Sequence record: NC_073078.1 | Length of the DNA: 45,207 bases | Strand: one strand, 5' to 3' | From: Escherichia phage welsh | Part shown: piece by piece, positions 1 through 40,518 of the stretch | How the letters are laid out: each line of letters starts with the position of its first letter | Numbering within the stretch: the first letter of the stretch is position 1 | Notes under the pieces: model-generated | What the model was told of the DNA's origin: nothing | Database searches by the model: none | Seen by the model: only the letters and a program-made list of their open reading frames with translations | Made by a program: the position numbers and the translations under genes

Positions 1-64
1 CTACCGTAAGGATCTGGTCGAGGCATTGTCTTGATTTGGTCGCTTAAATAGCGAGTGATAATAT

Positions 65-88: not shown

Positions 89-103
89 TTGGAGAATACT
101 ACA

Positions 104-1100: not shown

Positions 1101-1154
1101 TGAAATCGCTGATACAATATCCATCGGCAACTGCATAAAAAAGGGGACTGCATA

Positions 1155-3797: not shown

Positions 3798-3831
3798 TAA
3801 AATGGCCCTCACTACAACGTGGGGGCTTTTT

Positions 3832-5216: not shown

Positions 5217-5218
5217 CC

Positions 5219-5959: not shown

Positions 5960-6567
5960 CAACGTTTAAATTGTACGGCGTCTTAGGGCGTCGATTCGGT
6001 AAAGTTCATAAGCTGGACTGCTTCACTCCGGGCGAGGGTATTACCGGCCTGTGCGTGAAGTTACCCGGCTTACAGGACTTTCTAATGTCAGCCCACCTGG
6101 ACAATATGATGTTCAAGGTGCGCAAAGGCGACCACACGATGACCGGCTATGATGAGCTGGGTGAGTTCCACGGCAACCGCGTCGTCACCATCGCGCCGGT
6201 TATGACTGGCGCAAAAAGAGGGTTGGGACAATTGCTGGCGGGTGTCGCGATCGTAGTGGCGTCGTTCTATACGGGCGGACTTGCTACTGCCGCTTTCGGG
6301 GCTTCGGCTGCAACCGCTGCCGCTATCGGGACGGCGACGTTTTCGTTCGGGATGTCGATGGCGCTGGGTGGCGTTATGCAATTGCTGTCGCCACAACCGA
6401 AGGGATTGCAGACAAGGCAGGACGTGGATAACAAGGCGTCGTATGCGTTCGGCGGCCCAGTAAACACTACCGCGCAAGGCACGGCTCTTGGTGTATTATG
6501 GGGCGAGCGTGAGATCGGCGGCGCTATTATTTCAGCCGGAATCGTAACCGAGGACTTGAACGAATGA
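5950..6567 (+). CDS. Tail assembly protein I-like
   Basis: About 200 aa between K and J; Gly/Ala-rich hydrophobic C-terminal half. Confidence 0.65.
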   Translation: MAMTTFKLYGVLGRRFGKVHKLDCFTPGEGITGLCVKLPGLQDFLMSAHLDNMMFKVRKGDHTMTGYDELGEFHGNRVVTIAPVMTGAKRGLGQLLAGVAIVVASFYTGGLATAAFGASAATAAAIGTATFSFGMSMALGGVMQLLSPQPKGLQTRQDVDNKASYAFGGPVNTTAQGTALGVLWGEREIGGAIISAGIVTEDLNE

Positions 6568-9500: not shown

Positions 9501-9983
9501 TCCGCAGCTATCGAGCAGAAGATGACGTCTTCGTTTAACCATGCTGGTGGCAGCGCCACGTACAGTCTTAAGGCTGGCGTGACGTATAACGGGACTTACT
9601 ATGACGCCGGTATGCAGCTTTCAGTTGTGACGTCTGGCAACGCGGTTAAATCCCGCATCGCATTCAAGGCGGACCAGTTCTACATCATGCATCCGTCCAA
9701 TGGGACGCTGTCGTCTGCGTTTATTGTGGACGGTGGCGAGGTGTATATCGACACGGCACGCATCAAGAACGCGTCCATCAACTTCGCGCAGATAACAGAC
9801 ACGCTGCAATCGAATAACTACGACGGCAGCACGCGCGGCTGGCGCTTAGGGAAAGATGGAACGTTTATCAACCTGGGCACCGGTAGCGGCGGCGGGATGA
9901 AACAGACGAACACAAGAATAAGCGTGAAGGACGGAAACGGCGTTCTCCGCGTGCAGATTGGTGAGCTTACTGGTAGCTGGTAG
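6564..9983 (+). CDS. Central tail fibre / host specificity protein J-like
   Basis: 1139 aa, directly after I with overlapping start, as for lambda gpJ. Confidence 0.85.
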   Translation: MTIIYDVTGHKGGGGKQHTPQETPDSLHSLAKIRILLALGEGEFESITSASELRQRVYLDGTPIQNADLSENFPGARVEFRPGTQHQDVIHGFSAVESEQSVGVKLENGTPWVRQINDTSLDAVRIRIGIPALYTNEDNGDLVGGRIDYKIVVYTDNADPREFRFAAVGKTMSLYERDHRIELPPNVNTGWRVEVHRITADSTSAKVVNDIRVQSITEIIDARLRYPLTALLFVEFDAKAFQNIPRVSIKCKGRKVLIPNNYDPINHTYSGDWDGTFKRAWTDNPAWHWYDICITERFGLGRRIKPQMLNRYALYQIAQRCDQLVSDGNGGREIRFKNDMYIQSQTDAWTVLKDLAAIFAGMTWWGNQMLNIVSDQPVAAVSHTITNASVIDGRFDYASGSQKTRYSTFAVAYGNPKNHYEDAIATGQRVELVRRHKINRLDITAIGCTRESEAQRRGHWALISNQLDQQVSFKVGMEGLFFIPGSVVAIADTNISGGFETRGGRLLSDPGTRTVLNTDSEITFRPGDKFLVRTDSGNVETREIASVNGNKVTLKTALDADPIPDQPFCVDGDDIQLQKFRITDLEYDDSTSTFSVRGIEYNDSKYDAVDNGARLDPGIFTQVPDGVMKGPESVTITPSQISSQGQLITNVDIVFPPVKDAVVYEIQWRRTSLQNMEIQWGNDWVNIPRTASNGAHIPNVFSGNYQARVRAIGMGEISSPWVSSAITPVEGRLGGLNAPIITNAISGLHQILWKWNHNNAATDISYTELEVRKTGETEWKFLTNVPYPGAEYAQTSLEFGIYQQLRARVADKIGNLSDWSAPFEGQVSDKVDEYMKGLDDEFLTSEDGKRFQEAINTIPQGIYEAMLTDAQQLFNARAEYKGIYAEITVAYNVAADAHKAVAQLETLIGTRLDDAEASIHTLQTAQSTHEQAFAQYQQTVAAKFSEQEAAIQQVQTATADVAGALAEYKTQVAAQFGQQSAAIEQKMTSSFNHAGGSATYSLKAGVTYNGTYYDAGMQLSVVTSGNAVKSRIAFKADQFYIMHPSNGTLSSAFIVDGGEVYIDTARIKNASINFAQITDTLQSNNYDGSTRGWRLGKDGTFINLGTGSGGGMKQTNTRISVKDGNGVLRVQIGELTGSW

Positions 9984-9987
9984 TATA

Positions 9988-10007
9988 GGGGCTTCGGCCC
10001 CTTTTTA
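9988..10007 (+). terminator. Rho-independent terminator candidate after the J-like gene
   Basis: GGGGC-ttcg-GCCCC followed by TTTTT. Confidence 0.6.
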
Positions 10008-10019
10008 ACGAGGTTATTT

Positions 10020-10322
10020 ATGGCATTCGGTATCGCAACGTGGGACGCGCAAGGACGCCCAAACAACTACGGCATTAAACCGGTAAGCGTGATCGGAAGG
10101 ATTCATCTTGCGGAAGGACAAAAATCAGGCGCATGGTCATTCCCTGTACCGGCGGGGATGAAGGTCGGATACGTGGTCGCACTGGATGAAGGCGCGGTCG
10201 GGCCAGGCCGCAGAATAACCGCCAGCGGGAACACTATCACGGTTTCCGCGGCAAGTGCGGTAGGTGGCGGGGTTTACTCCGCATCTGAATGTGACGTTAT
10301 TGTTTTTGTGGAGCGAGCATAA
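10020..10322 (+). CDS. Hypothetical protein (tail-associated by position)
   Basis: 100 aa ORF with RBS GAGG upstream; no recognisable motif. Confidence 0.4.
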   Translation: MAFGIATWDAQGRPNNYGIKPVSVIGRIHLAEGQKSGAWSFPVPAGMKVGYVVALDEGAVGPGRRITASGNTITVSAASAVGGGVYSASECDVIVFVERA

Positions 10323-10996
10323 TGGCTAATTACGGCGCGTTGATTGACTTACCAAACGGCAACCCGTTTATCACGCCAGAATCGACGCCGTTTTGTCTAT
10401 TCCGCCGTGTGGTTGTTGGGTCTTCGGCAAACGGCACTGCGCAGTCGGCGGCTGCCGATATTAATTTGGGTGGTGACTACCCGGCAATAGCGTTTGTGAA
10501 AACTACGCACACCGCCCAGCCGACCGTCGTAGGGTCTTCTCGCGTTGGTAATGTGGTGAAGGTGAGAGCCAGCAATCCATTCGGGCGAGGCTTCACGATG
10601 ACGGCTTACATCTTTGCCATATTCCCACAGACCCTTCCGCGGTGGGGCTTCGCTATTTGGGATAAGACGGGGAAGCTAGTACTTACTAATGAGAGTCGCG
10701 TACTAAGCGATTTAGTTACCGTCGGATCTCCTGGCGCTAACGGGGGGATTAACATTGACCAGACGCTAAATGGCAGCTACGCCGTCGCTCCGGGCATATT
10801 GGGGTCTACGCTGATCCGGTTTTTTGTGCAGGGCCAGCCGCAAGTAATATCGGTAACGGCGTACACGGGGGCCAGATTTGATGGGTCGCGAACGCGTATA
10901 TCAGCAGCGTCGTCGGGGAACGCCACGGGGGATGTGGTGGGGTATACTAACAACGGCAACGCGATTATGGCGATTAACACGGCCAATTATGATTGA
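10322..10996 (+). CDS. Hypothetical protein (tail-associated by position)
   Basis: 224 aa ORF, start overlaps the previous stop; Gly/Thr-rich, likely beta-rich. Confidence 0.4.
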   Translation: MANYGALIDLPNGNPFITPESTPFCLFRRVVVGSSANGTAQSAAADINLGGDYPAIAFVKTTHTAQPTVVGSSRVGNVVKVRASNPFGRGFTMTAYIFAIFPQTLPRWGFAIWDKTGKLVLTNESRVLSDLVTVGSPGANGGINIDQTLNGSYAVAPGILGSTLIRFFVQGQPQVISVTAYTGARFDGSRTRISAASSGNATGDVVGYTNNGNAIMAINTANYD

Positions 10997-11015
10997 AGAA
11001 AGCCCCGAAAGGGGC

Positions 11016-11234
11016 TTATTTGCAGGTGGTGCTTTTGAAGTGGTCGACCGACACATACTGGAAGTTGAACGGATACCCCGCCTTGAGCATTTTGTGCCCG
11101 CTAAAGTCGGCGACACCGAACACTGGTACAGAATACTCCATACCGCTATTCATATATGTCGCGTCGCAGATTTTAGACGGCATACCGGCACAACCGGACA
11201 GAAGAACCGCACAAATCATAATTAAAGTTTTCAT
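11016..11234 (-). CDS. Small lipoprotein, candidate receptor-blocking superinfection exclusion protein
   Basis: Internal ATG at 11234 with AGGAGA RBS; MKTLIMICAVLLSGC is a signal peptide with lipobox LSGC; 72 aa; opposite strand, between tail genes. Confidence 0.55.
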   Translation of the reverse strand: MKTLIMICAVLLSGCAGMPSKICDATYMNSGMEYSVPVFGVADFSGHKMLKAGYPFNFQYVSVDHFKSTTCK

Positions 11235-11313
11235 GTTATCATCTCCTATATTTGGTTGAGTTTTAGTATTACACCTCTCAACCAGGATTGCAACCAATTA
11301 CGAGGATTTAGCT

Positions 11314-13740
11314 ATGGCAGCGGGCACACTATCCGTAACGAATAACAGCAAGGCGGTTGTCGGGGTAGGCACGACGTTTACCGCGTTTAAAGCCGGAGAC
11401 TTCTTAACGCTGGTGGTGGGCCAAGTACCCTACACCGTAGCGATCGCGTCCGTTGAAAGTGCAACCGCGCTAACGCTGGTGCTGCCGTTCGACGGCCCAA
11501 CGGCAACCGGCCTCGCGTGGGATGGCGTTAAGCGCGATACCATGTCGCTGGCAACGATGGGCGTTACCGTACAGGCACAGAAAGCGTTGCGCTTGATGAT
11601 CGCAGATGAAAACAACTGGCGCGCTATCTTCGGCGAAGAAGAAGAAATCTCGGTCACGCTACCGAACGGTCAAGTGGTGCAGGGTATGTCGTGGGGCTAC
11701 CTGTCAAAACTGCTTAAAGACGTAGATCCTGTTGAATTGCAGGCTATCGCGGACCAGACCATCACGGCTAAAAACCAGGCGCAAGGATTCCGTAACGAGG
11801 CGGAAGGATTCAAGAACACCGCGAATACCGCGAAAGAGGCCGCAGTAGCTGCGAAGACCGCGGCTGAAACGGCGCAGGGTAAAGCCGAGACAGCTACTGC
11901 GGCAGCGGAGTCCGCGAAGACTGCCGCCGAAACAGCTAAATCGCAGGCCGTAACCGCTAAAGACCAGGCAAAAGGATTCCGTGACGAGGCAGAAGGCTTT
12001 GCGAACAGCGCGGACGCCTCGCAGAAAGTGCCGTATGCGGGCGTAACCGTAAACCCTCCTACTGGCGTGAGGGATATGCTAAAGCGGTTGCGCGATTCGG
12101 TCAAAGGCGGATTCTGGCGCGTTGATGATATTTCGCAGTTCCAAGCGGGGGATATGACCCCTTTCAGATACGGACCTGGCGTATGTGGCGGCGCAGGGGA
12201 CACATTCTTTGCAATCAACGTTGACTGGCGAACCTCGCGCGTTAAAGTTTTCTCGGGAAACAACAACGCGATCAACGGGTCGTCGGGCAGTGTGAGCGCC
12301 ATTGAGCTTGCGAAGCTGGGGGCGAACGGGGGCGTGGCGATCGCGGACGGCGGGACCGGTGCATCGGACGACCAGGGCGCGAGAAAAAACCTTCAGGCAA
12401 TGCACGAGCGACAGGCATCGTTGAATACTGAAGATCTTAACGTCCTTCAGGGTGATAAGGCTGGGTTTTATTATCAGTCCATGTCGGCTGACGCCACCCC
12501 AGAGCGTAACTATCCTATTAACATGGCGGGTTGTTTACTGGTGCAAAGATCCGGTGCTAACGATCCGAAGAGTTGCGTACAGACGTACACCGCATACGGC
12601 AACGGGCGGCGTTGGATTCGATGGCTAGGCAACGCGACGACTGGCCCATGGTCGCAGTGGTACGAATTATATAACGCAGGGTCGTCGCCGACTTTTTCAG
12701 GGGTGGTCGCTGGTTCTTCGGTGGAGGCTAGAGGGAACGAAAAGCGCGCAGTTCTTCGCACCTGGCCTAATGATGTATCTGTTTCCAACTCGGCATCTAA
12801 TAAATTCTTGCAATTAAGGGACAATGGTGAGCTTGCATACGACAACAAGCTGATTGCCTATGACGGCCTTGCGGCCAGTGGCACTTTTGCTATGACCGTC
12901 CCTAGCATTAAAGTTACAACAGCCAATGGCGGATTTCGTATCGACGGCACCACCGCCACAAACAACCAGCCACTTCACGTAACAGGCTACAACTCCGCAG
13001 GCACGCGTCTTTGGTTTTTAGGGAAGGACACCGGGACGAACGCGCTATTCCTGAACGATGTTACATCGTCTAAGGTTGAGCTGATCACAGACGGCGTTGT
13101 GCTTGGTACAAAGGATTTTGCGGGCAAGGCATACGTCCAGGCCGCAAGTTTAGAGATCGACCGACCGAGCGGCAAGTATTTCAAAATGCTGAACGACGGC
13201 AACTCGTCGCACCCGGCAACCTTCAAATTATGGGGTAACGGGTCTGATAGGGCGTCGGTTATTGAGTGTGGTTTTGATAACGGCCCTGGGTGGGTGTTTT
13301 ACGCCCAGTATAACGGCGACGGCACGCGCCAGATGAACGTTAACGGAACGGTAAACTGTACGACGGTAAACCAGTCGTCTGACCGCGAGTTGAAGGATAA
13401 CATCAAGCCGATCGAGAACGCTCGCGCTGGCCTTGCTAAGATGGGTGGCTATACCTACACCCTGAAGAAAGACGGTATGCCGTACGCTGGGGTGATTGCA
13501 CAGGAAGTAATGGACGTTGTGCCGGAAGCGGTGAGCACTTTTGAGGACTACGAATACCTGGCAGGGCCAACGAAAGACGGCGAGGAACTGGTAGGGCGTC
13601 AGCGCTTCTTCCAGGTGGATTATGGTGCTATTGCTGCATACGCGGTGCAAGTGTGTAAAGAACAGGAAGAGGAACTGGTGTCATTGCGTAGCGAACTGGA
13701 GGAATTGAAAGCTGCCGTAGCGGCATTGACTAAAGCATAA
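11314..13740 (+). CDS. Tail fibre protein with C-terminal intramolecular chaperone (peptidase S74-like) domain
   Basis: C-terminal about 130 aa (SDRELKDNIKPIENARAGLAKMGGYTYTLKKDGMPYAGVIAQEV...) resembles the self-cleaving chaperone domain of phage fibres and endosialidases. N-terminal Ala/Lys-rich region has an internal duplication (GFRNEAEGF / GFRDEAEGF). Confidence 0.8.
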   Translation: MAAGTLSVTNNSKAVVGVGTTFTAFKAGDFLTLVVGQVPYTVAIASVESATALTLVLPFDGPTATGLAWDGVKRDTMSLATMGVTVQAQKALRLMIADENNWRAIFGEEEEISVTLPNGQVVQGMSWGYLSKLLKDVDPVELQAIADQTITAKNQAQGFRNEAEGFKNTANTAKEAAVAAKTAAETAQGKAETATAAAESAKTAAETAKSQAVTAKDQAKGFRDEAEGFANSADASQKVPYAGVTVNPPTGVRDMLKRLRDSVKGGFWRVDDISQFQAGDMTPFRYGPGVCGGAGDTFFAINVDWRTSRVKVFSGNNNAINGSSGSVSAIELAKLGANGGVAIADGGTGASDDQGARKNLQAMHERQASLNTEDLNVLQGDKAGFYYQSMSADATPERNYPINMAGCLLVQRSGANDPKSCVQTYTAYGNGRRWIRWLGNATTGPWSQWYELYNAGSSPTFSGVVAGSSVEARGNEKRAVLRTWPNDVSVSNSASNKFLQLRDNGELAYDNKLIAYDGLAASGTFAMTVPSIKVTTANGGFRIDGTTATNNQPLHVTGYNSAGTRLWFLGKDTGTNALFLNDVTSSKVELITDGVVLGTKDFAGKAYVQAASLEIDRPSGKYFKMLNDGNSSHPATFKLWGNGSDRASVIECGFDNGPGWVFYAQYNGDGTRQMNVNGTVNCTTVNQSSDRELKDNIKPIENARAGLAKMGGYTYTLKKDGMPYAGVIAQEVMDVVPEAVSTFEDYEYLAGPTKDGEELVGRQRFFQVDYGAIAAYAVQVCKEQEEELVSLRSELEELKAAVAALTKA

Positions 13741-13746: not shown

Positions 13747-13769
13747 GGGGCCATCCGGCCCCTTTTTTA
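13747..13769. terminator. Bidirectional terminator between the tail fibre gene and the end of the leftward operon
   Basis: GGGGCC-atcc-GGCCCC followed by TTTTTT on the + strand; genes converge here. Confidence 0.6.
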
Positions 13770-14342
13770 GTTTGAGTTTTCCCAGTCCATTTTGCGCCGC
13801 ACCAGCGGGCTTTCGTAATATTCCTTGCCTTCCACTTCCACCAGAGGCCAGTCGTTCACAATCACGTATGGCTCTGCGATATCCTCGATCACGCCGTGCG
13901 CGCTTTGCGGCCCTAACGATACACCCACCAGGATAACACCGGCAACGCGACGTGACAGATACTCGCGAGCGCAACGCGCCTCTACCAGCCCGCGACGGAT
14001 GCCGCTGGTGGCTTTAACCTCGTAAGTCCAAACGGCATCGATCACATGCTCGCGGAAGTCGGGGCCGGATTTAACCTTGCGCTTACCGACCATAATAATA
14101 TCGCCGCGGTCAATGGTATTGGCGCTAAACAGGCCGGTACGCATGAGCAAGCCTTGCGGTATGCAACTACGCCCGCCCGCCTGCCCCTCAAGGTACATAC
14201 CGGCAAACATCTCGCCCAAAACACCGACAAGACGGCTTTGCTTGCACGCGTCAGACTTTAAGCGCCACTGGTCAAACTCGATGCTTGCTATCATCGCCGC
14301 AAGGTGGAATTGTTTACCGGATATTTCATATTCGCCGTACAT
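13767..14342 (-). CDS. Hypothetical protein, possible PD-(D/E)XK-type nuclease
   Basis: 191 aa; RBS GAGGA before ATG; segment HVIDAVWTYEVKAT fits a D...ExK nuclease signature. The product call is weak. Confidence 0.35.
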   Translation of the reverse strand: MYGEYEISGKQFHLAAMIASIEFDQWRLKSDACKQSRLVGVLGEMFAGMYLEGQAGGRSCIPQGLLMRTGLFSANTIDRGDIIMVGKRKVKSGPDFREHVIDAVWTYEVKATSGIRRGLVEARCAREYLSRRVAGVILVGVSLGPQSAHGVIEDIAEPYVIVNDWPLVEVEGKEYYESPLVRRKMDWENSN

Positions 14343-14384: not shown

Positions 14385-14939
14385 TTATTTCAGTGCGCTA
14401 CGTACCAGTGTTTTTTCCATGTTGCGGAAGTCTTCCGGCGTCATGAGGGTTTTGGATCCGTCTTCGCCAGTTAGAACTACCATAGGCTGGACGTCCTGGG
14501 CTACAACTCCGAAATTGGCAGCTTTAACGGTCTTCCCTAACGAGGCCGCCATATCCTCGGTAACGCGCATTGCACTGTTATACGCATTAATCTCGCCATC
14601 AAGACGCACGGACAGACCTTTGAGGCTTTCAAACTGTTCTGCCGTTGTATCGATCTGAATCTCGTCATGCACGGTCATGTAAGACTCGCCCAGCAGGGCG
14701 GCATACGCTACCAGGTCCACGATGTTATCTTCCTGGTGTTTACGGTGCTGGCGTACCAGCTTTAGGCAGATCAAGAAGGTCCAGGCTTCTTGCTCGGTCA
14801 GGTCGCGACCGGTAAGCGCGTTAAACACGGCGGCAATTTGTTTCGCGCTGCGTTCCTCTTTCGCGTTGTCATAGCCGTTTTCTTTTCCGCGCTGTTCCAT
14901 AGTGGTGGCGGCGTTTTTGCAGTATTCGTATGCTTTCAT
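14385..14939 (-). CDS. Hypothetical protein
   Basis: 184 aa. N-terminal pattern EQRGKENGY...LTxxDxxxFLICLKLVRxxxK...DNIVDLVAYAALLGE resembles a domain I recall from phage nucleotide-metabolism proteins, but I cannot name the family with confidence. A GGGAGGC-n6-GCCTCCC hairpin sits in the 5' leader. Confidence 0.45.
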   Translation of the reverse strand: MKAYEYCKNAATTMEQRGKENGYDNAKEERSAKQIAAVFNALTGRDLTEQEAWTFLICLKLVRQHRKHQEDNIVDLVAYAALLGESYMTVHDEIQIDTTAEQFESLKGLSVRLDGEINAYNSAMRVTEDMAASLGKTVKAANFGVVAQDVQPMVVLTGEDGSKTLMTPEDFRNMEKTLVRSALK

Positions 14940-15002
14940 GATGTGGTCCTGTTTATGGGAGGCCGTATTGCCTCCCGACGCGTTAACTATAGTGCAACCA
15001 AC

Positions 15003-15473
15003 CTATTGGTTGCAAGTGAATTTTGCAACGTTTATTGCGTAAATTTTCGGGACCAAATCACCACACGCCCGACGAATTGCCGCGATGTTCTTCGGACAGT
15101 CTTCAATGATGACCAGTTCCGACACGTCCGCATAGCAGACCATTTTGAACACGGCGCACGCCTTAAACTCTGGCGGCGGGGTGTCGTCCAGCATGTGGCG
15201 CATAAACAACCTGCCGTTCGGGAATACTTCCAATTGCTCGGCGGTGGTGTCCCAACATTCGCGCTGCCGGTTTGTCAGATACGCGATCTCGAAGCCTTGC
15301 TCTTTGTACATGCGCAACAGCGGCAGCATATCCATGTTCAGGTCTTCGCGTATGTGCGCTTTGTGCCACTTTGCCCAAAATGTTGATTTCGTTTTTATAC
15401 CCGGAACCAGGTCGGCGCGTGCATCACTCGAACCATTAATAACGCCATCAAGATCACAAATCAGTAGTTTCAT
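15003..15473 (-). CDS. HAD-superfamily phosphatase (nucleotidase-like)
   Basis: N-terminal LLICDLDGVI is the HAD motif I (DxDG); 156 aa. Confidence 0.65.
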   Translation of the reverse strand: MKLLICDLDGVINGSSDARADLVPGIKTKSTFWAKWHKAHIREDLNMDMLPLLRMYKEQGFEIAYLTNRQRECWDTTAEQLEVFPNGRLFMRHMLDDTPPPEFKACAVFKMVCYADVSELVIIEDCPKNIAAIRRACGDLVPKIYAINVAKFTCNQ

Positions 15474-16847: not shown

Positions 16848-16928
16848 CGTGTTGTCTCCAGGTATTAAAAAGGGCGTCCAAACCGGACACCCTAAATATA
16901 ATGCAACCAATATGATTATGCAACCAAT

Positions 16929-19646: not shown

Positions 19647-19820
19647 TTATTTTTGTTCTGCACGGTAGCGGCGCTGCCGTTCGCGCTCTTTCTTATTGCG
19701 GCACGATTTGCACTCTGCCCGATACCCGTCTGGACTGCGCGCAGTCTTACCGGTGTATTTGTGGAACTGGGATAGCGGCTTGACACAGCCACAATTACTA
19801 CAACGTTTTTCTTCAATCAT
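19647..19820 (-). CDS. Small zinc-ribbon protein
   Basis: Internal ATG 19820 with GAGGA RBS; 57 aa with CxxC...CxxC (CSNCGC...ECKSC) and a basic C-terminal tail. Confidence 0.4.
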   Translation of the reverse strand: MIEEKRCSNCGCVKPLSQFHKYTGKTARSPDGYRAECKSCRNKKERERQRRYRAEQK

Positions 19821-19860
19821 CTCTAGAATCCTCGATATGGCTAACCGGCACACTATACCG

Positions 19861-20139
19861 CTATGCGACCAATTCAGCAACCAATAAATCGCAGTCGGAT
19901 ATGTTGTCGATAACGCGAACGTCAGCACCGCGGCGGGCCATTCGCTCATGTTCACGTACCTGGTGCGGCTTCGGTTTTCCTCCGGGGCGCTTCACTTCGA
20001 CGAACACTATTTTGCCGTTGATGATAATAATCAGGTCGGGCGCACCTGCGCGCCCCTCCCATGCCAGTTTTCGGCAGAATCCGCCAACATCTTTCACCCG
20101 TCTCATCAGGTGGCTTTGAATCTTGCCTTCTGGTGTCAT
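19861..20139 (-). CDS. VRR-NUC domain nuclease
   Basis: GAPDLIIIINGKIVFVEVKRPGGKPKPHQVREHE matches the VRR-NUC PD-(D/E)XK core; ATG overlaps the polymerase stop. Confidence 0.7.
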   Translation of the reverse strand: MTPEGKIQSHLMRRVKDVGGFCRKLAWEGRAGAPDLIIIINGKIVFVEVKRPGGKPKPHQVREHERMARRGADVRVIDNISDCDLLVAELVA

Positions 20140-22430
20140 TACTTCCTGTACCTGTACATAATGTCGCCTTCGGCGGCAAGTGGGAAGCCTTTCGCCCAAA
20201 TAGGCAGGTCGCACATCAGCGCGCAAAGCTCCTCTGTCGTGTAGTCGTCGGTGTCTGGCACTTCTGTGATCAATTCGTCGTGGACTGACAGGACGATTTC
20301 ATACCCCGCAGCTTCAACGCCAGGCATGGACCATGCGAGAATATCACGGCACAACGCCTGTACTATGTTCTCCGTCAGTTTGCCGCCGTAGGTATACTGG
20401 AAGCCCCACTGGCGCGTCGTCTGATTCTCGCCCTGATATTTAATGCGTGTGCTGGTGCGCTTCTTGCCGGTGTCTTCGTCAATCTCGGTCGTGACGGACA
20501 GCGCGATGCCTGGGTAGCTCATGATGCGCCCCGACGGCAACTCAATTTTCAACCACCAACCGGCGGCGTTCGGGTCGTCGCGCTCCTCGTCGAAGGTTGG
20601 GTCGTGCTTCGCCTTCGTGCGCACAATCTTAAGCGCTTTCCTACCGTCCGGGCGAACGTTCGCGCCAGCCCAGTACGCTTTGCCCGGATTGCGGATCGCA
20701 CATAACACCGCGTCCTCAAGCTCGGCCCAAAAGGCTACCGTCTTCGGGTGAGCCTCGCGCCACATACGTTTGATTGCGTCACAAGTCAGCCATACGTTTT
20801 TCGGCAGTATGTATGTTGGGCGCTCGTCCTTCTTACCAGGCTTCGGCGGGCGCTTCGCTTCGTTAATGCGGGCGTACTCATAGCCGCGTTTCGCCGCTGC
20901 CCAAATGTGATCCGGGAACGTGCCTTTCATCACGTCCGCCATAGTGTAAAGGTCGAGGCCCAGGTTTTTAGCGAACTGCAAGAACGCCGCGACGCCGCCA
21001 CCATAGCCCAGTCCCAATTCGCACGCCTTACCGATCTGGCGTAAGTCCTTGCGGTTGGCTTTAATGTAGTCCGGGTCCAGGCCGAACATCTTACCGGCAG
21101 TCTCACAATAGATATCGCGACCGGCCTTAAACACCATGAGCGCGGTTTTCTCGCCCGCGATCCAGGCAAGCCCACGCCCTTCCACGTTGGAGTAGTCCGC
21201 TACGACAAACTTCTTGCCCTTAGCCGGGATAATGCACCCGCGAACGGTCGAGGCTGTTAGCTTAGATATGTCATACGCCCAGTGCGCGGTCCCGCGTAAC
21301 AGGGAATTGATGCCGTTGGTGAGCATGTGCGTCCGGACCCAAAAAGCAACGTCGCTCTCGCCTTCGCGGCGCTTAATCTTCCCTTCGTGATCGTCGCTAT
21401 ACTCGCCGCGTGCCAGGTTTTGAGGCTGGAAGCCTTTACCGGCCCAGCGTAGCGTGCGCTTTGCCCCACCATACTGAAGACAACCACGGCGGCGACCATC
21501 GGCGGACAGGCCATTGACAAGCGGATTGTACTTAGTCGATGCCGTTGATGACGCACCGAGGCGCATTTCGATAAGCGCTTTGCCTTCGTCGGGGAAGTCC
21601 GGGTCTTCAAGCAGGTCGTTAAGTGTGGATTTCTGCGCGTTGTGGATTGTGAACGCCGGGGCGATATCACGCAGGATTGGCAGGAAGTCATTGCCTGTCA
21701 GTTTACCGCCAAATCGCTCCCAGGCTTCCTCCTTCAATTCTTCCTTATGCGCCTGCACCGCTTTGATCGCGGCGTTCGCCAGGTCAACGTCCACATAGAA
21801 GCCGCGGTCGTTGATCAACTGGTCGATAAGCAGGATTTCATCTTCCTTCGGAGTATTACCCCAGTCCGGTATGCGCCAGTAGACCTCACGCATCGCGATA
21901 ATATCCAGCGCGGCATATCGCAGAAATTTGGCCCATTCTTCAGGGTGAGTCTCGCGAGTGTAGCGGCGGATTTTGTAAGTCTTAGGGGTCGGCTTACAGA
22001 ATCGTTTGATCAGCGCCTTGCCTGCCTTATCCTTCGCGTGCTCTGCGTCAACGCCCAGCACCTGACACTGCATATCGAGGCTACCCGGCAGCGCGTGGCG
22101 AAAGGCCATAATCATTGTGTCTTCGATCTGGCTTACTGGCAGGTCGATGCCCCACTTCTCACGGATAACCAGGCGGTCAAACAGGAGGCCGTTAGCCATC
22201 ACTATTTTTGCTTTCTTGCGGGATACATGGCGGAGCGCCTTGCGCAGTTCACGCGGCATTGTGGGGGATTCAGTGCAATCCCATGTCTGCACGCGGCCCT
22301 CGTCGATGGCGTATGTGCAAATCATAATCTCGGTGGTTGGGTGCTCTGCGTAGGCGTACGCCCCAACCTTCTTTAGGTCCACCCCGCTAAATGTCTCGGT
22401 ATCGAGAAACAGGCGTTCGAAGTCTTTCAT
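20139..22430 (-). CDS. Family A DNA polymerase with 3'-5' exonuclease domain
   Basis: 763 aa; N-terminal FLDTETFSG (exo I-like DxE), central and C-terminal Pol I-like motifs including RQ..K.....YG and VHDE. Confidence 0.9.
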   Translation of the reverse strand: MKDFERLFLDTETFSGVDLKKVGAYAYAEHPTTEIMICTYAIDEGRVQTWDCTESPTMPRELRKALRHVSRKKAKIVMANGLLFDRLVIREKWGIDLPVSQIEDTMIMAFRHALPGSLDMQCQVLGVDAEHAKDKAGKALIKRFCKPTPKTYKIRRYTRETHPEEWAKFLRYAALDIIAMREVYWRIPDWGNTPKEDEILLIDQLINDRGFYVDVDLANAAIKAVQAHKEELKEEAWERFGGKLTGNDFLPILRDIAPAFTIHNAQKSTLNDLLEDPDFPDEGKALIEMRLGASSTASTKYNPLVNGLSADGRRRGCLQYGGAKRTLRWAGKGFQPQNLARGEYSDDHEGKIKRREGESDVAFWVRTHMLTNGINSLLRGTAHWAYDISKLTASTVRGCIIPAKGKKFVVADYSNVEGRGLAWIAGEKTALMVFKAGRDIYCETAGKMFGLDPDYIKANRKDLRQIGKACELGLGYGGGVAAFLQFAKNLGLDLYTMADVMKGTFPDHIWAAAKRGYEYARINEAKRPPKPGKKDERPTYILPKNVWLTCDAIKRMWREAHPKTVAFWAELEDAVLCAIRNPGKAYWAGANVRPDGRKALKIVRTKAKHDPTFDEERDDPNAAGWWLKIELPSGRIMSYPGIALSVTTEIDEDTGKKRTSTRIKYQGENQTTRQWGFQYTYGGKLTENIVQALCRDILAWSMPGVEAAGYEIVLSVHDELITEVPDTDDYTTEELCALMCDLPIWAKGFPLAAEGDIMYRYRK

Positions 22431-22597
22431 TGCTTAATCCTCACTACGGCGTCAGCACTGCCGATCATGGAGAAGATGCCGTCTGACAGGGCGATCTCTT
22501 CGCCGTTGTTGCGAATCTCGGCAACTGTGAAATATTCCCCCAGTAGCTTGGACCATACTTGCATTCCGACTTTTACTTCGCTGGCTTTAATACGCAT
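22427..22597 (-). CDS. Hypothetical small protein
   Basis: Internal ATG 22597 with AGGA RBS directly after the terminator U-tract; the longer track ORF would overlap the SSB gene. Confidence 0.35.
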   Translation of the reverse strand: MRIKASEVKVGMQVWSKLLGEYFTVAEIRNNGEEIALSDGIFSMIGSADAVVRIKQ

Positions 22598-22612
22598 TTT
22601 TCGTTGTCCTAT

Positions 22613-22637
22613 TAAAAAGCCCGCATTAAGCGGGCTT
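22613..22637 (-). terminator. Minus-strand intrinsic terminator/attenuator after the SSB-like gene
   Basis: On the minus strand AGCCCGC-ttaat-GCGGGCT followed by TTTTT. Confidence 0.55.
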
Positions 22638-22655
22638 GAATAGTGGGCTTTGCCC

Positions 22656-23285
22656 TTAACGGCGGCGACGTTTACGAGGTGCTTCGTCTTCGTCGTCGTT
22701 GTCCAGGTCTTCATCGGAGCAAGAAGACCCGCCACCGCCGAAGGCTTCACCGTCATCACGGAAGCGTAAACCCAGCAAGCCAGCACCGAGTCCCTTGCCG
22801 TTGGTGTTGTTCCACGCCCAAATATCAAGGGACACGTTGCAATAACAACCGGAGTAGATCTCCTGGCCTTCAATCTCGTCGCCGTCTATGGTCATACCTT
22901 GTTCAGTCTGCTTCTCGCCGAGTGACGTTTGAATGATTGGTTGTTTGAACGATTTGGCGTTGATATACAACATGCCTTCGAATTCTTCGGTTACTTCATC
23001 GCGCTCGTCGCCGTCGCGCACTGCGCATTCCTTAGAATCCTGGGCGTAGTGGCGGTCCATCCACTTATCGGCATTCTTCTCGGATTTCAGCTTGTCGGTG
23101 AGCACTGCGCGCGCTGCCGCTTCCACTTTGTCCACCTGCGGATCTTCTTTATCCAGAAGAATCACGGCACGGTATGCCGGTTTTTGTCCATCCTGTTTAG
23201 GGGTATCACGTTCCCAAATTTTCAGGAAGCATACGCGCACATTTTTCAGGTTGACTTTAGCCATTTTCCAATTCCTCATTTTCAC
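22656..23285 (-). CDS. Single-stranded DNA-binding protein (DUF2815-like)
   Basis: N-terminal MAKVNLKNVRVCF pattern, acidic C-terminal tail, position next to polymerase and DUF2800-like nuclease. Confidence 0.6.
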   Translation of the reverse strand: MKMRNWKMAKVNLKNVRVCFLKIWERDTPKQDGQKPAYRAVILLDKEDPQVDKVEAAARAVLTDKLKSEKNADKWMDRHYAQDSKECAVRDGDERDEVTEEFEGMLYINAKSFKQPIIQTSLGEKQTEQGMTIDGDEIEGQEIYSGCYCNVSLDIWAWNNTNGKGLGAGLLGLRFRDDGEAFGGGGSSCSDEDLDNDDEDEAPRKRRRR

Positions 23286-23354
23286 ATGTATCGGGGTTAT
23301 TGGAAGCCACCCCGTTCGGCTTGGTTGCTAATCTACTTGGTTGCGCCTGAGCGG

Positions 23355-23597
23355 TCAAGCGTTTTTATTAAAAAGATTTCGTGTCACGTAGTTGGTGGCG
23401 TTCTCGACCCAGCTTAACGGCGGGCGGTCGATGTTCTTCTCCACCCAGTCGACGGCAGCGTCGCTATATCCGTCGTCCAGCCATTGGGTCGGATGGCGAA
23501 TCATCCAGGCCACCATTAACACGCCTTGCACGCAATGCAGGATAAAGCCCAGCGCGCCGAGCAAAAACATCAATAAGATTGCGAATACTTTATTCAT
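23355..23597 (-). CDS. Small membrane protein
   Basis: 80 aa with N-terminal transmembrane helices (VFAILLMFLLGALGFILHCVQGVLMVAWMI). Confidence 0.4.
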   Translation of the reverse strand: MNKVFAILLMFLLGALGFILHCVQGVLMVAWMIRHPTQWLDDGYSDAAVDWVEKNIDRPPLSWVENATNYVTRNLFNKNA

Positions 23598-26148: not shown

Positions 26149-26344
26149 GGTATATCTCCGATTGGTTAAGTTTAGGTGTCGGCAGTTAACTTCGTCGGTG
26201 GCCTTAACATATTGCCAGGTTACGCGTTCTCCCGTTCGGGTAGTGGACCTGGTTATATAATCACGGTTGGGAATCCTGACACTTCGATCCGGCCCCTGCG
26301 TTGCCCCTCTCCAGTTTGCGTCCTGCATCCTGTCGACGGGGTGA

Positions 26345-26374
26345 ATAATAGATTGGTTGCAGGATGGGTGTCAA
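26345..26374 (-). promoter_or_regulatory. Candidate leftward early promoter
   Basis: On the minus strand TTGACA, 18 nt, TATTAT; an ATTGGTTGCA motif lies in the spacer; about 190 nt upstream of the first leftward gene. Confidence 0.3.
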
Positions 26375-26384
26375 CAACTAATTT

Positions 26385-26419
26385 CAAAAAAAAGCGCCGA
26401 GGCAAAATGCGACGGCGCT
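26385..26419 (-). terminator. Minus-strand hairpin with U8 tract inside the divergent control region
   Basis: On the minus strand AGCGCCG-13 nt loop-CGGCGCT followed by TTTTTTTT. Confidence 0.45.
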
Positions 26420-26488
26420 AACCAATAAGAGACAATGAGACGAGAATTATTATTACACGCGTGCGCGCCCGTTTCAATATCCAAAGGA

Positions 26489-26517
26489 TTTGACACCGTG
26501 CAGTTTTGGGTGTAGTT
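26489..26517 (+). promoter_or_regulatory. Candidate rightward promoter
   Basis: TTGACA, 17 nt, then TAGTTT (weak -10), about 35 nt before the HTH gene. Confidence 0.3.
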
Positions 26518-26549
26518 TCGTTGGTCATTAACCAACTGAGGGCAGAGCA

Positions 26550-26879
26550 ATGAATGTAAACGACGCAATCGAAATGTTAACGAAGACTGTTTGCAGTGAG
26601 ACAAGCCGGTCATGGGCATACACCGATGCCGTGGGGGCTGTGTTATTTGAAATCGAACGACTGCGGCTTACCGAAAAAGAATTGCGCGCCAGGCTGGAAC
26701 TACTCAACGGTACAGCAGCAAGCAAGCTGCAAAAACACAATGAAGAAATGGAAGAATACAAAAAGCAGGTTATCCGTTTGCGCGCCGAGGGCAAATCTTG
26801 GGCGATGATTGCCGAGTTGACCGGAATTAATCAGAGCACAGTGCGCTCCTGGGTACGCAATAATAAAACTTCTAAGTAA
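26550..26879 (+). CDS. HTH DNA-binding protein (possible early regulator)
   Basis: C-terminal GKSWAMIAELTGINQSTVRSWV is helix-turn-helix-like; first gene of the rightward transcript. Confidence 0.45.
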   Translation: MNVNDAIEMLTKTVCSETSRSWAYTDAVGAVLFEIERLRLTEKELRARLELLNGTAASKLQKHNEEMEEYKKQVIRLRAEGKSWAMIAELTGINQSTVRSWVRNNKTSK

Positions 26880-26889
26880 GGCCACGGCA

Positions 26890-29154: not shown

Positions 29155-29229
29155 ATTTTGCGCGCATTGGTTGCCGATATGGGAATTCCCATATCGCTAA
29201 AAGATTAAATTTTGCGCGCGTTGGTTGCC
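29146..29229. repeat. 30-bp direct repeats flanking a perfect 20-bp palindrome
   Basis: AAAGATTAAATTTTGCGCGC(A/G)TTGGTTGCC at about 29146-29175 and 29200-29229 (1 mismatch); GATATGGGAATTCCCATATC at about 29176-29195; the left repeat overlaps the primase stop codon. Confidence 0.8.
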
Positions 29230-29269
29230 ATTTTGGGTGTTTCTATCTGGTCGTATTGGTTGCCGTGTA

Positions 29270-29480: not shown

Positions 29481-29626
29481 CGGGGATTGCAAAATACACG
29501 GCAGCATGATGCGAAGCGCGGTCACGGATGAACTAGGCAACCAATGCGAGTTGCAGAATGGTGGGTGAAAAATGCAGTTTGCAGTCACAGCAGATAGCGA
29601 TCAACTTTTTCATGCGCGTGATTAAT

Positions 29627-29662
29627 ATTGGTTGCATTCGGCCTGGCACCTTGCTATATTGG
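29627..29662 (+). promoter_or_regulatory. Candidate promoter overlapping two ATTGGTTGCA motifs
   Basis: TTGCAT, 17 nt, TATATT, about 30 nt before ATG 29689. Confidence 0.35.
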
Positions 29663-29688
29663 TTGCACACCAACATGAGGACTGAACA

Positions 29689-30015
29689 ATGAAAGCGATT
29701 ATCTGGAATTACGCAATGGCTATGGCGAAGGCACAAGAAGCGGCGGAGTTCGCCGGTGAAGGAGCGGAAGCGGTCGAAAGACTATCGGCAGCGTGGTCCG
29801 TTGTTCGCGTCACGCAGCAGGCCATCGCCTGTATGCTGGAGCGCCGCTTCGACACGATGGCAGAGATCCAGCCACTAGCGAACGCAATCCAGGACTACGC
29901 GCTTGCATTTGCCCGTGAGCGCCTGGCGTATCGCTTCGGGATCGGTGAGACGGCAGTGACAAACGTCGCCCGGATTAAAGCCCAGCGCGAGCTATTCGCC
30001 CAGCTTGCGAAATAA
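29689..30015 (+). CDS. Hypothetical protein
   Basis: 108 aa, predicted all-alpha; no recognisable motif. Confidence 0.45.
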   Translation: MKAIIWNYAMAMAKAQEAAEFAGEGAEAVERLSAAWSVVRVTQQAIACMLERRFDTMAEIQPLANAIQDYALAFARERLAYRFGIGETAVTNVARIKAQRELFAQLAK

Positions 30016-30024
30016 GGTGCCAAA

Positions 30025-30297
30025 ATGGACCGCAGACGCGCGAAACAGCTTTCGTGGCATATCCCACTGCATTGCATACGAATATGGGCTAAGAATGCGA
30101 ATGAGGGCGATTCTGTGTTCTGGAGCTATCGCGACGATGTGAAGCCCCTAACGCAGACCCGCTATCTGCACCAGTTCGCCAGGGAGCATGGATTCGCTAT
30201 AAAAACGTCCTTGCAACCAATTGGCATCCGTATTACATTACGCCGGAAGCCCGCCGTTGAGCGGGTAGGCAAACACTGGAGACTGAGCAAATGTTGA
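30025..30297 (+). CDS. Hypothetical protein
   Basis: 90 aa basic protein. Confidence 0.4.
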   Translation: MDRRRAKQLSWHIPLHCIRIWAKNANEGDSVFWSYRDDVKPLTQTRYLHQFAREHGFAIKTSLQPIGIRITLRRKPAVERVGKHWRLSKC

Positions 30298-32546: not shown

Positions 32547-32562
32547 TACGAGGTAACACAGT

Positions 32563-32764: not shown

Positions 32765-32825
32765 GCTTGACTCGCAACCAACACAGGGGCCATACTGCAA
32801 CCAATCAACGAGAGGAGTAATCAAG

Positions 32826-39230: not shown

Positions 39231-39245
39231 TGGCCCCCTTTTCGT
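39218..39245. terminator. Bidirectional terminator between the spanins and the minus-strand island
   Basis: GGGGGCC-gtgat-GGCCCCC followed by TTTTCG on the + strand; U-rich also on the minus strand. Confidence 0.6.
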
Positions 39246-40009
39246 TAGCGCGGAATACCGCAAATCTCGTTTAACGTCTTCACGTCCAGCGCCACCGCCG
39301 TGGACTTCGGCTTGTCCGGGTAAGGAATGAACTGCTCCACTTCAGGCCACGCCTTGATCAGCTTCTTATCGGTATTGTGCATATCCAGCACGCCGGTAAC
39401 AGTTAGTTTGAACGCATCATACTTAGCACGCAAATCGCGGCGGGCCTTGTCGTTACGGTCCAGGCGCTTACAGAAATCATGGTCCGCCGGGTAGTCTACG
39501 CGACCGCGAGGAAGATATATCGGCAACGCTTTCCCGTCCTCGTCCACTTCGCACACGGACGCGAGCATTACTTCTTCGTACCCAGGTACGATATCGCCGA
39601 GATCGGGAGATAGCTTATTCATGTATTTATACTCCCAGTATCCGCGATGTACTCGGAATCGGTGTCCGTCCCCGCTCAATGACACGGTACGGACGTTTCC
39701 GCCTGCGTTGATTTCGAAAGTAGCGTCGTAAACGCTGCCTATACCATATGGGCTGTCGGCGTCATGTCTATACGTCGCATTATTGGTGTACACACAGACG
39801 CCGTACATCTGCGACGGGTCATCGCCGATTGCTTCAATGCGCTCACGTAGCTCGGCGAAAGTGCGAATGCCTTCCGGCATACAGTGCAACGTAATGTCAT
39901 ACGCCAGGTCGCGTGAGTCCTTCATGATGGATTTGGCTTCGGTCGCGATTTCATGGTCGCGCAGGATGTTAGCCAGAATCTGGTTTTTAATGTCTTTCGT
40001 CAGTCTCAT
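39245..40009 (-). CDS. Hypothetical protein (254 aa), minus-strand insert in the head module
   Basis: Long ORF with GAGGGC upstream; no motif I can assign. Confidence 0.55.
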   Translation of the reverse strand: MRLTKDIKNQILANILRDHEIATEAKSIMKDSRDLAYDITLHCMPEGIRTFAELRERIEAIGDDPSQMYGVCVYTNNATYRHDADSPYGIGSVYDATFEINAGGNVRTVSLSGDGHRFRVHRGYWEYKYMNKLSPDLGDIVPGYEEVMLASVCEVDEDGKALPIYLPRGRVDYPADHDFCKRLDRNDKARRDLRAKYDAFKLTVTGVLDMHNTDKKLIKAWPEVEQFIPYPDKPKSTAVALDVKTLNEICGIPR

Positions 40010-40048: not shown

Positions 40049-40363
40049 TTAGTTAAACTTGATGTTGCCACCGGTGGAAGTTAAGCGAGCGCATACAGCT
40101 TCAACGGCATCGACGCACATGAAATCGTTAAAGGCTTCGACCAGGGCGTTGATGAATGATGCCGGAACCAGACCGCAAGCCGGATTATCGAAGGTCGCGG
40201 AATTTATTGCAGCCTTCGCTGCTTCATTAGCGTTCATGCTCTGGCACAGATTCAGCGCTTCAGCGTTACGCATTGCGTGAAAGGTAAAGGTATTGGCTAC
40301 GGTAGCTTTATTGAAACGGGTCATTGCTACGTCTACTGGAGTTACTACGGTCATGTTAGTCAT
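40049..40363 (-). CDS. Hypothetical protein (104 aa)
   Basis: ORF upstream of the 254 aa gene on the same strand; its promoter region carries tandem TGCAACCAAT motifs. Confidence 0.5.
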   Translation of the reverse strand: MTNMTVVTPVDVAMTRFNKATVANTFTFHAMRNAEALNLCQSMNANEAAKAAINSATFDNPACGLVPASFINALVEAFNDFMCVDAVEAVCARLTSTGGNIKFN

Positions 40364-40518
40364 TTTGTTTTTCCTTCATATCTCTGTTGGTGTGCAACCA
40401 ATATATGCAACCAATACACGGATTGCAAGCTAATTTTGCGATTATTTTTATCACTGATAATATTAGAGGCGTGAAGTCGAGCGGGTGGCCCGCTCTGCCA
40501 CAATCCCAGGGGGATAGC

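Follow-up and report, generated by a model that had tools for sequence, protein, structure and literature searches.

A recurrent 10-mer at the predicted promoters of a Dhillonvirus, and a zinc-ribbon protein as its candidate reader

What does a short word that recurs between the genes of a virulent phage signal, and which protein reads it? The question arises from the 45,207-nucleotide sequence of Escherichia phage welsh (NC_073078.1; this whole stretch is called the window below), in which the 10-mer TGCAACCAAT is found in many intergenic regions. At 14993-15014 two copies, TGCAACCAAC (14993-15002, + strand) and TGCAACCAAT (15005-15014, - strand), form the palindrome TGCAACCAA-CCTA-TTGGTTGCA. 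A first-pass annotation had flagged this palindrome, one base off at 14994-15015, as the sign of a dimeric DNA-binding protein. We find that the word is a promoter-associated cis element present across the genome. With moderate confidence, we propose from sequence comparison that it is the operator of a phage regulator, probably a monomeric repressor that occludes promoters, and that the binder is most likely g19647, a 57-amino-acid (aa) zinc-ribbon protein encoded at 19647..19820 (-).

Judged by its sequence, the window is a Dhillonvirus genome of 45.2 kb, complete or nearly so, from a virulent E. coli siphophage of the HK578-like kind. Over a test region of 4 kb, phage Gluttony_ev152 is 95% identical, and matches were obtained to 159 phage records. 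Dhillonviruses are among the commonest coliphage isolates and include BASEL members and the SECphi phages of defence-system studies, and their transcription programme is so far undescribed. Genes were mapped by transferring the curated annotation of the BASEL phage Oekolampad with tblastn. On this map, a rightward structural and lysis block runs from roughly 26550 to 45207 and resumes at 1-13740, a leftward replication and nucleotide-metabolism block extends from 26528 down to 13767, and a divergent early control region (~26330-26550) lies between them. The intergenic share of the window is 6.7%; a mask of any open reading frame (ORF) of >=90 aa overcalls coding sequence, and our conclusions are not built on it. 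The Oekolampad, SO-1 and bob records list neither an integrase nor an immunity repressor, and a scan of the window against Rfam gave no match at the gathering threshold.

The motif and its promoter registers

In an unbiased k-mer scan made with no prior, GCAACCAA was the most over-represented 8-mer of the genome (22 occurrences against 1.7 expected) and TGCAACCAAT the top-ranked 10-mer. Exact matches to TGCAACCAAT on both strands numbered 11, compared with 0.15 expected from shuffles, and none of 100 shuffles reached 11; allowing one mismatch, there were 17 matches against 3.5 expected. The count matrix of the intergenic sites describes an asymmetric 10-mer, (T/g)GCAACCAA(T/c), with flanks that carry no information. 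Seventeen of the 22 GCAACCAA core sites fall within the intergenic 6.7% of the genome (binomial p = 2e-16), and an equal density inside and outside coding sequence is clearly ruled out. Five core sites are in coding sequence. Three of them (15005, 19876 and 30212) are located at the 3' end of a gene or belong to a conserved promoter-like block within one, which leaves 2478 and 5826 as the probable chance occurrences. The genome-wide regulatory signal recognized at first pass is thus borne out. The site positions given there were right to within a few bases (26351 is now 26352, 29168 is 29166, 29222 is 29220, 29537 is 29536 and 32779 is 32773), and the exact site 30212 and the degenerate pair 23320 and 23336 had been overlooked.

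Conservation in related genomes is strong. Every close relative has the motif, at 3-7 copies per 10 kb, and complete Dhillonvirus genomes carry 21-22 core copies each, with 22 in LM40P1, the most divergent Dhillonvirus available (79% identical). In alignments of orthologous intergenic regions across Dhillonviruses, the motif columns were invariant and the neighbouring bases variable.

Promoters were predicted by sigma70 consensus matching. Five promoter-like matches overlapped motif sites, including the best sigma70 match of the genome, and the elements display a sigma70-type layout, with -35-like and -10-like hexamers 16-18 bp apart upstream of genes. In a looser scan, the core started at -27/-28, -10/-9 and +4/+5 relative to the -10 hexamer where the motif reads ATTGGTTGCA along transcription (reverse), and at -21/-22, -17, -10/-9 and +6/+7 where it reads TGCAACCAAT (forward). 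Three slots can be described. In the first, the motif lies over the -35 and its own TTGCA is the -35 hexamer of the predicted promoter, a role already suspected at first pass, with the core 27-28 nt (reverse) or 21-22 nt (forward) upstream of the -10-like hexamer. The second is the spacer, directly abutting the -10, and the third spans the downstream -10 edge and the transcription start. Most predicted promoters hold two motif copies, in two different slots and either orientation. Promoters using the motif TTGCA as -35 have poor -35 hexamers and good -10 hexamers; the strongest consensus promoters have copies solely in the spacer or at the start site. In total, 14 of the 17 intergenic sites keep one of these registers relative to a promoter-like element, compared with 28% of all intergenic positions (p = 5e-6). 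The register set is complete again in LM40P1, and individual sites of eiAU, Smarc3, L192 and L168, phages introduced below, are in the same registers. We regard the cis element and its integration into promoters as well supported. The sites of the window are the following.

11265..11298 (-): promoter-like TTGCAA-17-AATACT (-35 TTGCAA 11293-11288, -10 AATACT 11270-11265), exact copy 11289-11298.
14993-15014: the palindrome, in a leftward promoter-like element with -35 TTGCAA 15015-15010, an 18-bp spacer and -10 TATAGT 14991-14986, upstream of genes 14385..14939 and 13767..14342.
16895..16928 (-): exact copies 16902-16911 and 16919-16928; -35 TTGCAT 16923-16918, a filled 17-bp spacer, -10 TATATT 16900-16895.
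19852..19885 (-): promoter-like element of the zinc-ribbon gene itself, -35 TTGCTG 19880-19875, 17-bp spacer, -10 TATAGT 19857-19852; AGCAACCAAT (19876-19885) gives the -35 and TGCGACCAAT (19864-19873) lies in the spacer.
23320..23358 (-): promoter-like TTGACC-17-TAGATT (23358-23330) preceding the SSB gene; CGCAACCAAG (23336-23345) occupies the spacer directly next to the -10, AGCAACCAAG (23320-23329) just past the -10.
26345..26374 (-): predicted leftward early promoter TTGACA-18-TATTAT, at 11/12 the best sigma70 match in the genome; exact copy 26352-26361 in the spacer, abutting the -10.
29166..29264 (-): GGCAACCAAT (29166-29175), GGCAACCAAC (29220-29229) and GGCAACCAAT (29255-29264) in non-coding DNA after the helicase-primase gene ('region B' of the SO-1 record); the 29166 and 29220 copies are inside a longer direct repeat, AAGATTAAATTTTGCGCGC-RTTGGTTGCC.
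29536..29667: GGCAACCAAT 29536-29545 (+), exact copies 29627-29636 and 29658-29667 (-); rightward promoter-like element with -35 TTGCAT 29632-29637, a 17-bp spacer and -10 TATATT 29655-29660 overlapping the 29658 copy, upstream of gene 29689..30015.
30211..30239 (+): TTGCAA-17-TACATT with exact copy 30212-30221, inside gene 30025..30297.
32767..32805 (+): promoter-like TTGACT-18-CATACT (32767-32796) after a terminator (32737-32758); CGCAACCAAC (32773-32782) adjoins the -35, and an exact copy (32796-32805) lies at the -10 edge and start site.
40393..40428 (-): exact copies 40393-40402 and 40406-40415 in leftward TTGCAA-17-TATATT (40428-40400), serving genes 40049..40363 and 39245..40009.
26517..26533 (uncertain member): GTTGGT-CATTA-ACCAAC, in which only the ACCAAC part of the motif is present, as an inverted pair.

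The palindrome that raised the question is the -35-slot copy and the spacer-slot copy, in opposite orientations, of one predicted leftward promoter, and would not be a dimer operator. Its sequence is invariant in four distinct Dhillonvirus sequences, with a variable leader downstream. Elsewhere the motif occurs singly and as direct, inverted (GTTGGT-N5-ACCAAY) or everted (ACCAA-N4-TTGGT) pairs with spacings of 12, 13, 16, 17, 23 and 31 bp, most sites being single or direct, so that the palindrome is no sign of a dimer. The asymmetry of the motif, the lack of conserved flanks and the variable pair geometries all run counter to a dimeric binder with this half-site. Relative to local gene direction, about 8 sites are forward and about 10 reverse; a motif in several registers and both orientations fits an operator better than a polymerase recognition element, and the phage-specific promoter element offered as an option at first pass is disfavoured.

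Some sites deserve comment. The copy at 11289 had been taken for an element of the tail-fibre leader; it supplies instead the -35 of a leftward promoter-like element that faces the divergent lipoprotein gene 11016..11234, lies at the same time 15 nt upstream of the tail-fibre start codon, and is accompanied by degenerate copies at ~11252-11260 and ~11279-11287. The block 30211..30239 is conserved within an otherwise variable coding region and is likely an internal promoter for downstream genes. Downstream of the promoter-like element 32767-32796 come a 26-aa ORF, the phosphoesterase gene and the packaging genes. The 40393/40406 pair is also ~60 and ~73 bp upstream of the expected start of a rightward TTGCGA-16-TAATAT (40437-40464) before the scaffold gene. 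The ACCAAC pair 26517..26533 is just downstream of the rightward promoter TTGACA(26491)-17-TAGTTT predicted for the helix-turn-helix (HTH) gene 26550..26879, and could be a separate operator of the HTH protein itself; an ACCAAC palindrome is likewise found upstream of the zinc-ribbon homologue gene in the lineage L238.

The zinc-ribbon protein and its distribution

The protein g19647 was singled out by its presence/absence profile across relatives. It consists of a zinc ribbon, CxxC...CxxC, followed by a basic C-terminal tail or helix, ERERQRRYRAEQK; the AlphaFold model (pLDDT 83) has the ribbon, then a helix of residues 38-56. Fold and sequence searches of the PDB with g19647 gave no significant match. 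The protein matched PHROG 5558 (E = 6.5e-17) and no Pfam model at E < 0.01.

Within the phage collection, homologues of g19647 were present only in Dhillonvirus, four Edwardsiella phages (the eiAU group) and three Serratia phages. The homologue in the Serratia phages predicted the motif there, and enrichment was then found: Smarc3 holds 13 core sites versus 1.8 expected, one of them just downstream of the -10 of the homologue gene's TTGACA-17-TATAGT promoter. The Edwardsiella phage eiAU-183, with a helicase-primase ~45% identical to that of the window, has 23 core sites, 17 of which are intergenic and several at the same gene junctions as in the window. On the other hand, ten relatives (a kagunavirus, L019-L026 and L028) harboured neither homologue nor motif when examined by tblastn, pattern search and a profile hidden Markov model, the profile matching carriers at E <= 1e-26 and none of these ten. 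Core frequency was 0.2-1.0x expectation in non-carriers (1.7 in the kagunavirus) versus 1.8-3.9x in carriers. The polymerase, helicase and helicase-primase of the ten are about as similar to those of the window as are those of eiAU and Smarc3.

Further lineages (L with a number) came from homologue searches of viral contigs and public assemblies. Taken together, the homologue and a GCAACCA core occur in at least nine lineages, unrelated phages included, and both are absent in 10 related lineages. The bases that follow GCAACCA, and the sites, are given below by lineage.

L166: A(T/C); 10 core sites in 10 kb.
L188-L194 group: A(T/C); 4-8 core sites per locus (12.7-20 kb).
L239: A(T/C); GCAACCAA 5 times against 0.3 expected.
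L237: mixed; 3 sites in the 60 nt that precede its operon.
L168: TA; GCAACCATA 4 times against 0.2 expected, all intergenic, with an inverted pair directly upstream of the homologue gene.
L233 and L234: GA; GCAACCAGA, 7 of 9 sites intergenic in L233, pairs flanking the homologue gene.
L235: (T/G)T, that is, GCAACCA(T/G)T; 6 of 7 sites in the intergenic 7% of the locus.

The zinc-ribbon core is conserved throughout. The tail differs between specificity classes, and the 3' dinucleotide of the motif co-varies with it, the words being GCAACCAAT in the window, GCAACCAGA in L233 (protein P0003) and GCAACCATA in L168. The homologues of L168, L233 and L234 are 65-70% identical in phages that are otherwise unrelated (PolA 25% identical, different primase-helicase), and probably reached them through horizontal transfer. 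Other words in distant homologue loci were considered as co-varying motifs and rejected: CCAACACC and CCGACACC come from coding repeats for Pro-Thr, GCCGAGTA is also a coding repeat, and copies of CTGCACAG are spread over coding DNA. As a separate observation, CTGCACAG occurs 21 times in 20 kb of L195, an unrelated phage contig, against 0.6 expected, and may be a restriction/modification-related or Chi-like word.

In terms of the wider family, an exhaustive protein search recovered 914 relatives (E up to 0.001), where a word-indexed search gave 3 close ones. Many of the 914 contain 2-9 tandem modules that match the Stc1 family, some ending in an HNH domain, and one multi-module relative weakly matches Lar_restr_allev. 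L235 and L240 encode a separate true Lar_restr_allev protein besides the zinc-ribbon homologue. Among PHROGs and predicted viral structures, the module is an accessory domain of HNH and endonuclease VII-type nucleases. Such a tandem or nuclease-fused arrangement is the architecture of a modular, putatively DNA-binding targeting unit. By profile and predicted fold, g19647 would be a free-standing copy of these Stc1-like or Lar-like modules (PF12898, PF14354) of phage homing endonucleases; it differs from the nuclease-attached ones in standing alone, without a nuclease domain, as a conserved 55-80-aa protein that co-occurs with a promoter-associated motif.

A putative operator and the alternatives

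Taking these results together, an operator of a phage-encoded regulator may be built into nearly every recognizable sigma70-type promoter of the window. The argument for g19647 as its binder is a comparative one, and we infer the promoters, physical binding, monomer stoichiometry and the sign of regulation. A monomer would suit the asymmetry of the motif and the variable pair geometry: recognition of the invariant GCAACCA would fall to the zinc ribbon, that of the variable 3' bases to the basic C-terminal helix. Since the motif embeds a -35 hexamer, the regulator would be in competition with sigma region 4 for these bases, and since occupation of any of the three slots would exclude RNA polymerase, we favour repression by occlusion. 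The g19647 promoter, being composed of two motif copies (19852-19885), would imply autoregulation. In a virulent phage, the role might be a timed shut-down or damping of early and middle transcription. A dual role may apply at 40393-40415, where the pair overlaps the leftward promoter and lies ~60/73 bp upstream of the rightward scaffold-gene start.

Several points weigh against this proposal. Its logic is puzzling if every promoter is repressed, including the one that heads toward the late genes (32767), and the pair at about -60/-73 of the scaffold-gene promoter would suit activation. The promoter calls are consensus matches, and the -35 slot is partly circular, as the motif itself contains TTGCA. 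The lineages are not fully independent, and among the close relatives the adenine methylase gene is distributed in a similar way. L238 has the homologue, yet the motif is not enriched across its genome; a single ACCAAC palindrome directly precedes the homologue gene. Conversely, L057 and L137, unrelated metagenomic viral contigs, hold dense non-coding clusters of the word ATTGGTTGCA (12 copies at 2750-3180 in L057; 8 copies at 9039-9270 in L137, between a DUF3987 helicase gene and an XRE-HTH gene) and no homologue in the contig parts examined. Apart from a weak terminase match, neither contig has a protein in common with the window or eiAU. A tandem-pair scan of viral contigs returned, among the matches listed, mostly Ala-Thr-Asn coding repeats, the only non-coding clusters being those of L057 and L137. 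The zinc-ribbon module lacks a solved structural analogue, and DNA binding by it is only proposed. Finally, our literature search found no published description of the motif, of Dhillonvirus promoters, of a SECphi18 transcriptome or of a function for the zinc-ribbon protein; the only mention is that of repeat-rich 'regions A and B' in the SO-1 GenBank record, and the eiAU genome paper detected no phage transcription factor in eiAU (PMC3025963).

The closest known logic, by analogy, is that of mycobacteriophage L5 and its cluster A relatives. There, an asymmetric 13-mer occurs at more than 20 genome sites, in promoters and short intergenic gaps, and is read by a monomer; site orientation follows transcription, reversal abolishes repression, and the immunity repressor of these temperate phages is a 183-aa protein with HTH and 'Stoperator' domains (PMC9283540). 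The window likewise has one small asymmetric site, a 10-mer, in more than 20 copies at promoters and intergenic gaps. Its orientations are mixed, however; its sites are locked into core-promoter registers, unlike the elongation-blocking placement in L5; and the phage is virulent, with a 57-aa zinc ribbon as candidate. No HTH-plus-Stoperator repressor was found among the window proteins scanned. With both the orientation rule and the repressor type failing here, the window system is an analogue of the L5 system and not a member.

Three other systems have single aspects in common with that of the window. The p4 protein of phi29 is a small protein of a virulent Bacillus phage that represses early promoters and activates a divergent late promoter from the same sites; it is no zinc protein and binds as a dimer to inverted repeats in one control region. 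The 40393-40415 pair between divergent promoters has a p4-like layout, whereas the window sites as a whole are genome-wide. P2 Ogr and P4 Delta are ~70-aa zinc-binding late activators that recognize a dyad, TGT-N12-ACA, near -55. Like the candidate, they are very small phage zinc proteins serving a promoter set with a common sequence, but their dyad contrasts with an asymmetric site within the core promoter, and no sequence similarity of g19647 to Ogr/Delta was detected. The MotA box of T4 is a phage word that replaces the -35 of sigma70 middle promoters at one position (~-30) and in one orientation, and requires MotA and AsiA. Some window sites are similarly centred near -30 to -35, and the window differs in its three registers and both orientations.

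Among the alternatives, the one that survives best retains the element and the zinc-ribbon binder and changes the sign. The protein would be an activator, or a dual switch in the manner of phi29 p4, activating the weak-(-35) promoters or the scaffold-gene promoter and repressing strong early ones. This is possible, and we consider it doubtful. The hexamer quality of the promoters using the motif as -35, the class-I-like distances of the 40393/40406 pair from TTGCGA-16-TAATAT, and the presence of the motif at nearly all promoters, odd for a pure repressor, would be accounted for. Nevertheless, almost every -35-slot promoter has a second copy in its spacer or over its start, positions unused by known activators at 17-18-bp spacers, and the strongest consensus promoters, with only spacer or start-site copies, are likewise at odds with activation.

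The first-pass annotation had named the HTH protein 26550..26879 as a binder, which could be a Cro-like early regulator; we find this improbable. No homologue of this Dhillonvirus-only protein was present in the motif-bearing eiAU-183, Smarc3, L168 and L192 or in the examined parts of L233, L235 and L239. The position is taken there by XRE-type proteins, as in eiAU-183 and Smarc3, or by nothing detectable, and two different HTH folds reading one 10-mer would be unlikely. The features in its favour are a C-terminal HTH (HTH_23, HTH_28, sigma70 region 4-like) in a protein of 109 aa, and a gene at the divergent early control region, beside a motif-bearing promoter. Two other phage proteins were rejected as binders. 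The 380-aa HTH-phosphoesterase, likewise named at first pass, failed on its phylogenetic profile, being absent from eiAU and Smarc3 and 79% identical in the motif-less kagunavirus. The other is the helicase-primase, considered for its C-terminal region: only an AAA_25 domain is assigned to the protein, and motif-less relatives align over the full length and the eiAU C-terminus diverges, the opposite of expectation.

A host factor, be it an enterobacterial transcription factor, a nucleoid protein or RNA polymerase, might also read the word without a phage partner. Every host identified belongs to the Enterobacterales, a -35-like TTGCA is part of the motif, and the L057 and L137 clusters would then need no zinc-ribbon gene. 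It would nonetheless surprise us, taking into account that a related kagunavirus of the same host and nine other relatives lack the motif, that the 3' bases vary by phage lineage and track the tail of the phage protein, and that the spacer and start-site registers are not polymerase recognition positions. The PdhR or GntR-type box is ATTGGT-N3-ACCAAT. By inspection, the motif misfits PdhR (an N3 spacer versus N5 or everted here) as well as the CytR, NtrC and sigma54 consensus sequences.

Nor is it likely that the copies are primarily replication-origin iterons, or loading sites for the helicase-primase or another replication protein, with promoter overlap a secondary matter. The densest clusters do follow the helicase-primase gene directly (6 copies in ~500 bp in Dhillonvirus, ~10 in ~800 bp in eiAU, 4 sites in Smarc3), the L137 cluster follows its DUF3987 helicase gene, and the SO-1 record marks the region as repeat-rich; these clusters may have some origin-related role. 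Spacing in this cluster is irregular and orientation mixed, however, and most copies are dispersed singly or in pairs at promoters over 30 kb. Moreover, the motif is missing from relatives whose helicase-primase is just as similar (42-44% identity), and L168 and L233 use a different primase-helicase (DUF5906), yet possess motif and zinc-ribbon gene. Lastly, a target site for a phage DNA-modifying or DNA-cutting enzyme (adenine methylase, HNH endonuclease or nicking enzyme) with no transcriptional meaning is highly improbable in spite of the shared profile of the methylase gene and the common joining of the module to HNH nucleases, as such sites would be neither confined to intergenic DNA nor locked to promoter registers, no methylase homologue was found in the examined part of motif-bearing L168, and g19647 has no nuclease domain.

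Returning to the proposed operator and its zinc-ribbon reader, a broader idea can be put forward tentatively. Free-standing zinc-ribbon modules, usually attached to homing endonucleases, might form an unrecognized family of minimal (55-80 aa) monomeric phage transcription factors, each governing essentially a whole promoter set through a 9-10-bp word that doubles as the -35, the ribbon reading GCAACCA and the basic helix setting the 3' bases; arrays of up to nine modules would then be a modular DNA-reading system. If the helix does set the lineage-specific bases, specificity would be re-programmable by swapping the tail. The proposal, if true, would provide a promoter map and a candidate master regulator for the genus, a directly testable protein-DNA pair of 57 aa and 10 bp with natural specificity variants, and a first proposed function for a widespread module that homing endonucleases and giant-virus proteins contain as well. 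Synthetic biology might also gain a repressor-operator pair that is orthogonal and very small.

Neighbouring genes and other repeats

Directly downstream of the two-site element 16895-16928 we noted a strong hairpin with a T-run (AGGGTGTCCGGTTTGGACGCCCT TTTTAAT; 16871-16893, -); the promoter-then-terminator order at 16871-16928 is a layout of antitermination or attenuation systems. Near 11265..11298, the ORF 10993..11259 (+) is probably spurious, and the real gene would be the leftward lipoprotein gene 11016..11234 (signal peptide ...LLSGC), divergent from the tail-fibre gene and annotated as superinfection exclusion protein in phage bob. For the SSB or single-strand annealing gene (22427-23291), the alignment with the Oekolampad protein of 269 aa covers residues 1-210 only, and a second ORF, 22427..22873, overlaps the gene and goes on in another frame; a frameshift, a sequencing error or a real truncation is possible. 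Directly after the promoter-like element 32767-32796, at 32826-32906, is a hydrophobic ORF of 26 aa (MARKDIWVLAIWTTAAFIGMVICELI) that lacks annotation and has a good ribosome-binding site. A hint that phages of this group modify DNA or nucleotides comes from gene 39245-40009, whose product matches Nmad5 (nucleotide modification associated domain 5) at E = 7e-58; L233, L234 and L238 likewise have Nmad5 genes alongside the zinc-ribbon gene.

A second repeat family, unrelated to the motif, is located at 780-1090 and 29300-29480. Each region has many copies of (A)GCGGGACA(G) and its complement, then a conserved hairpin, cagtctttcagactagacgggggtcaaYggcccccctcgtctgagactgaataa. The 29300 copy is preceded by TATAAT (29276-29281) adjoining a motif site, and might be transcribed into a non-coding RNA or serve as an origin element. 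In Oekolampad, small coding sequences are annotated over both copies, the SO-1 record designates them repeat regions A and B, and Rfam gave no match. Finally, the octamer ACGGCAGC occurs 24 times where 3.2 are expected. Of these copies, 18 are on the + strand and 6 on the - strand; they fall in every reading frame and irrespective of gene orientation, for example at 2814, 5502, 9823, 15944, 19513, 28484 and 44585. The octamer is enriched also in the motif-less relatives and is thus a separate signal of the wider group, which may be Chi-like or tied to priming or packaging orientation.

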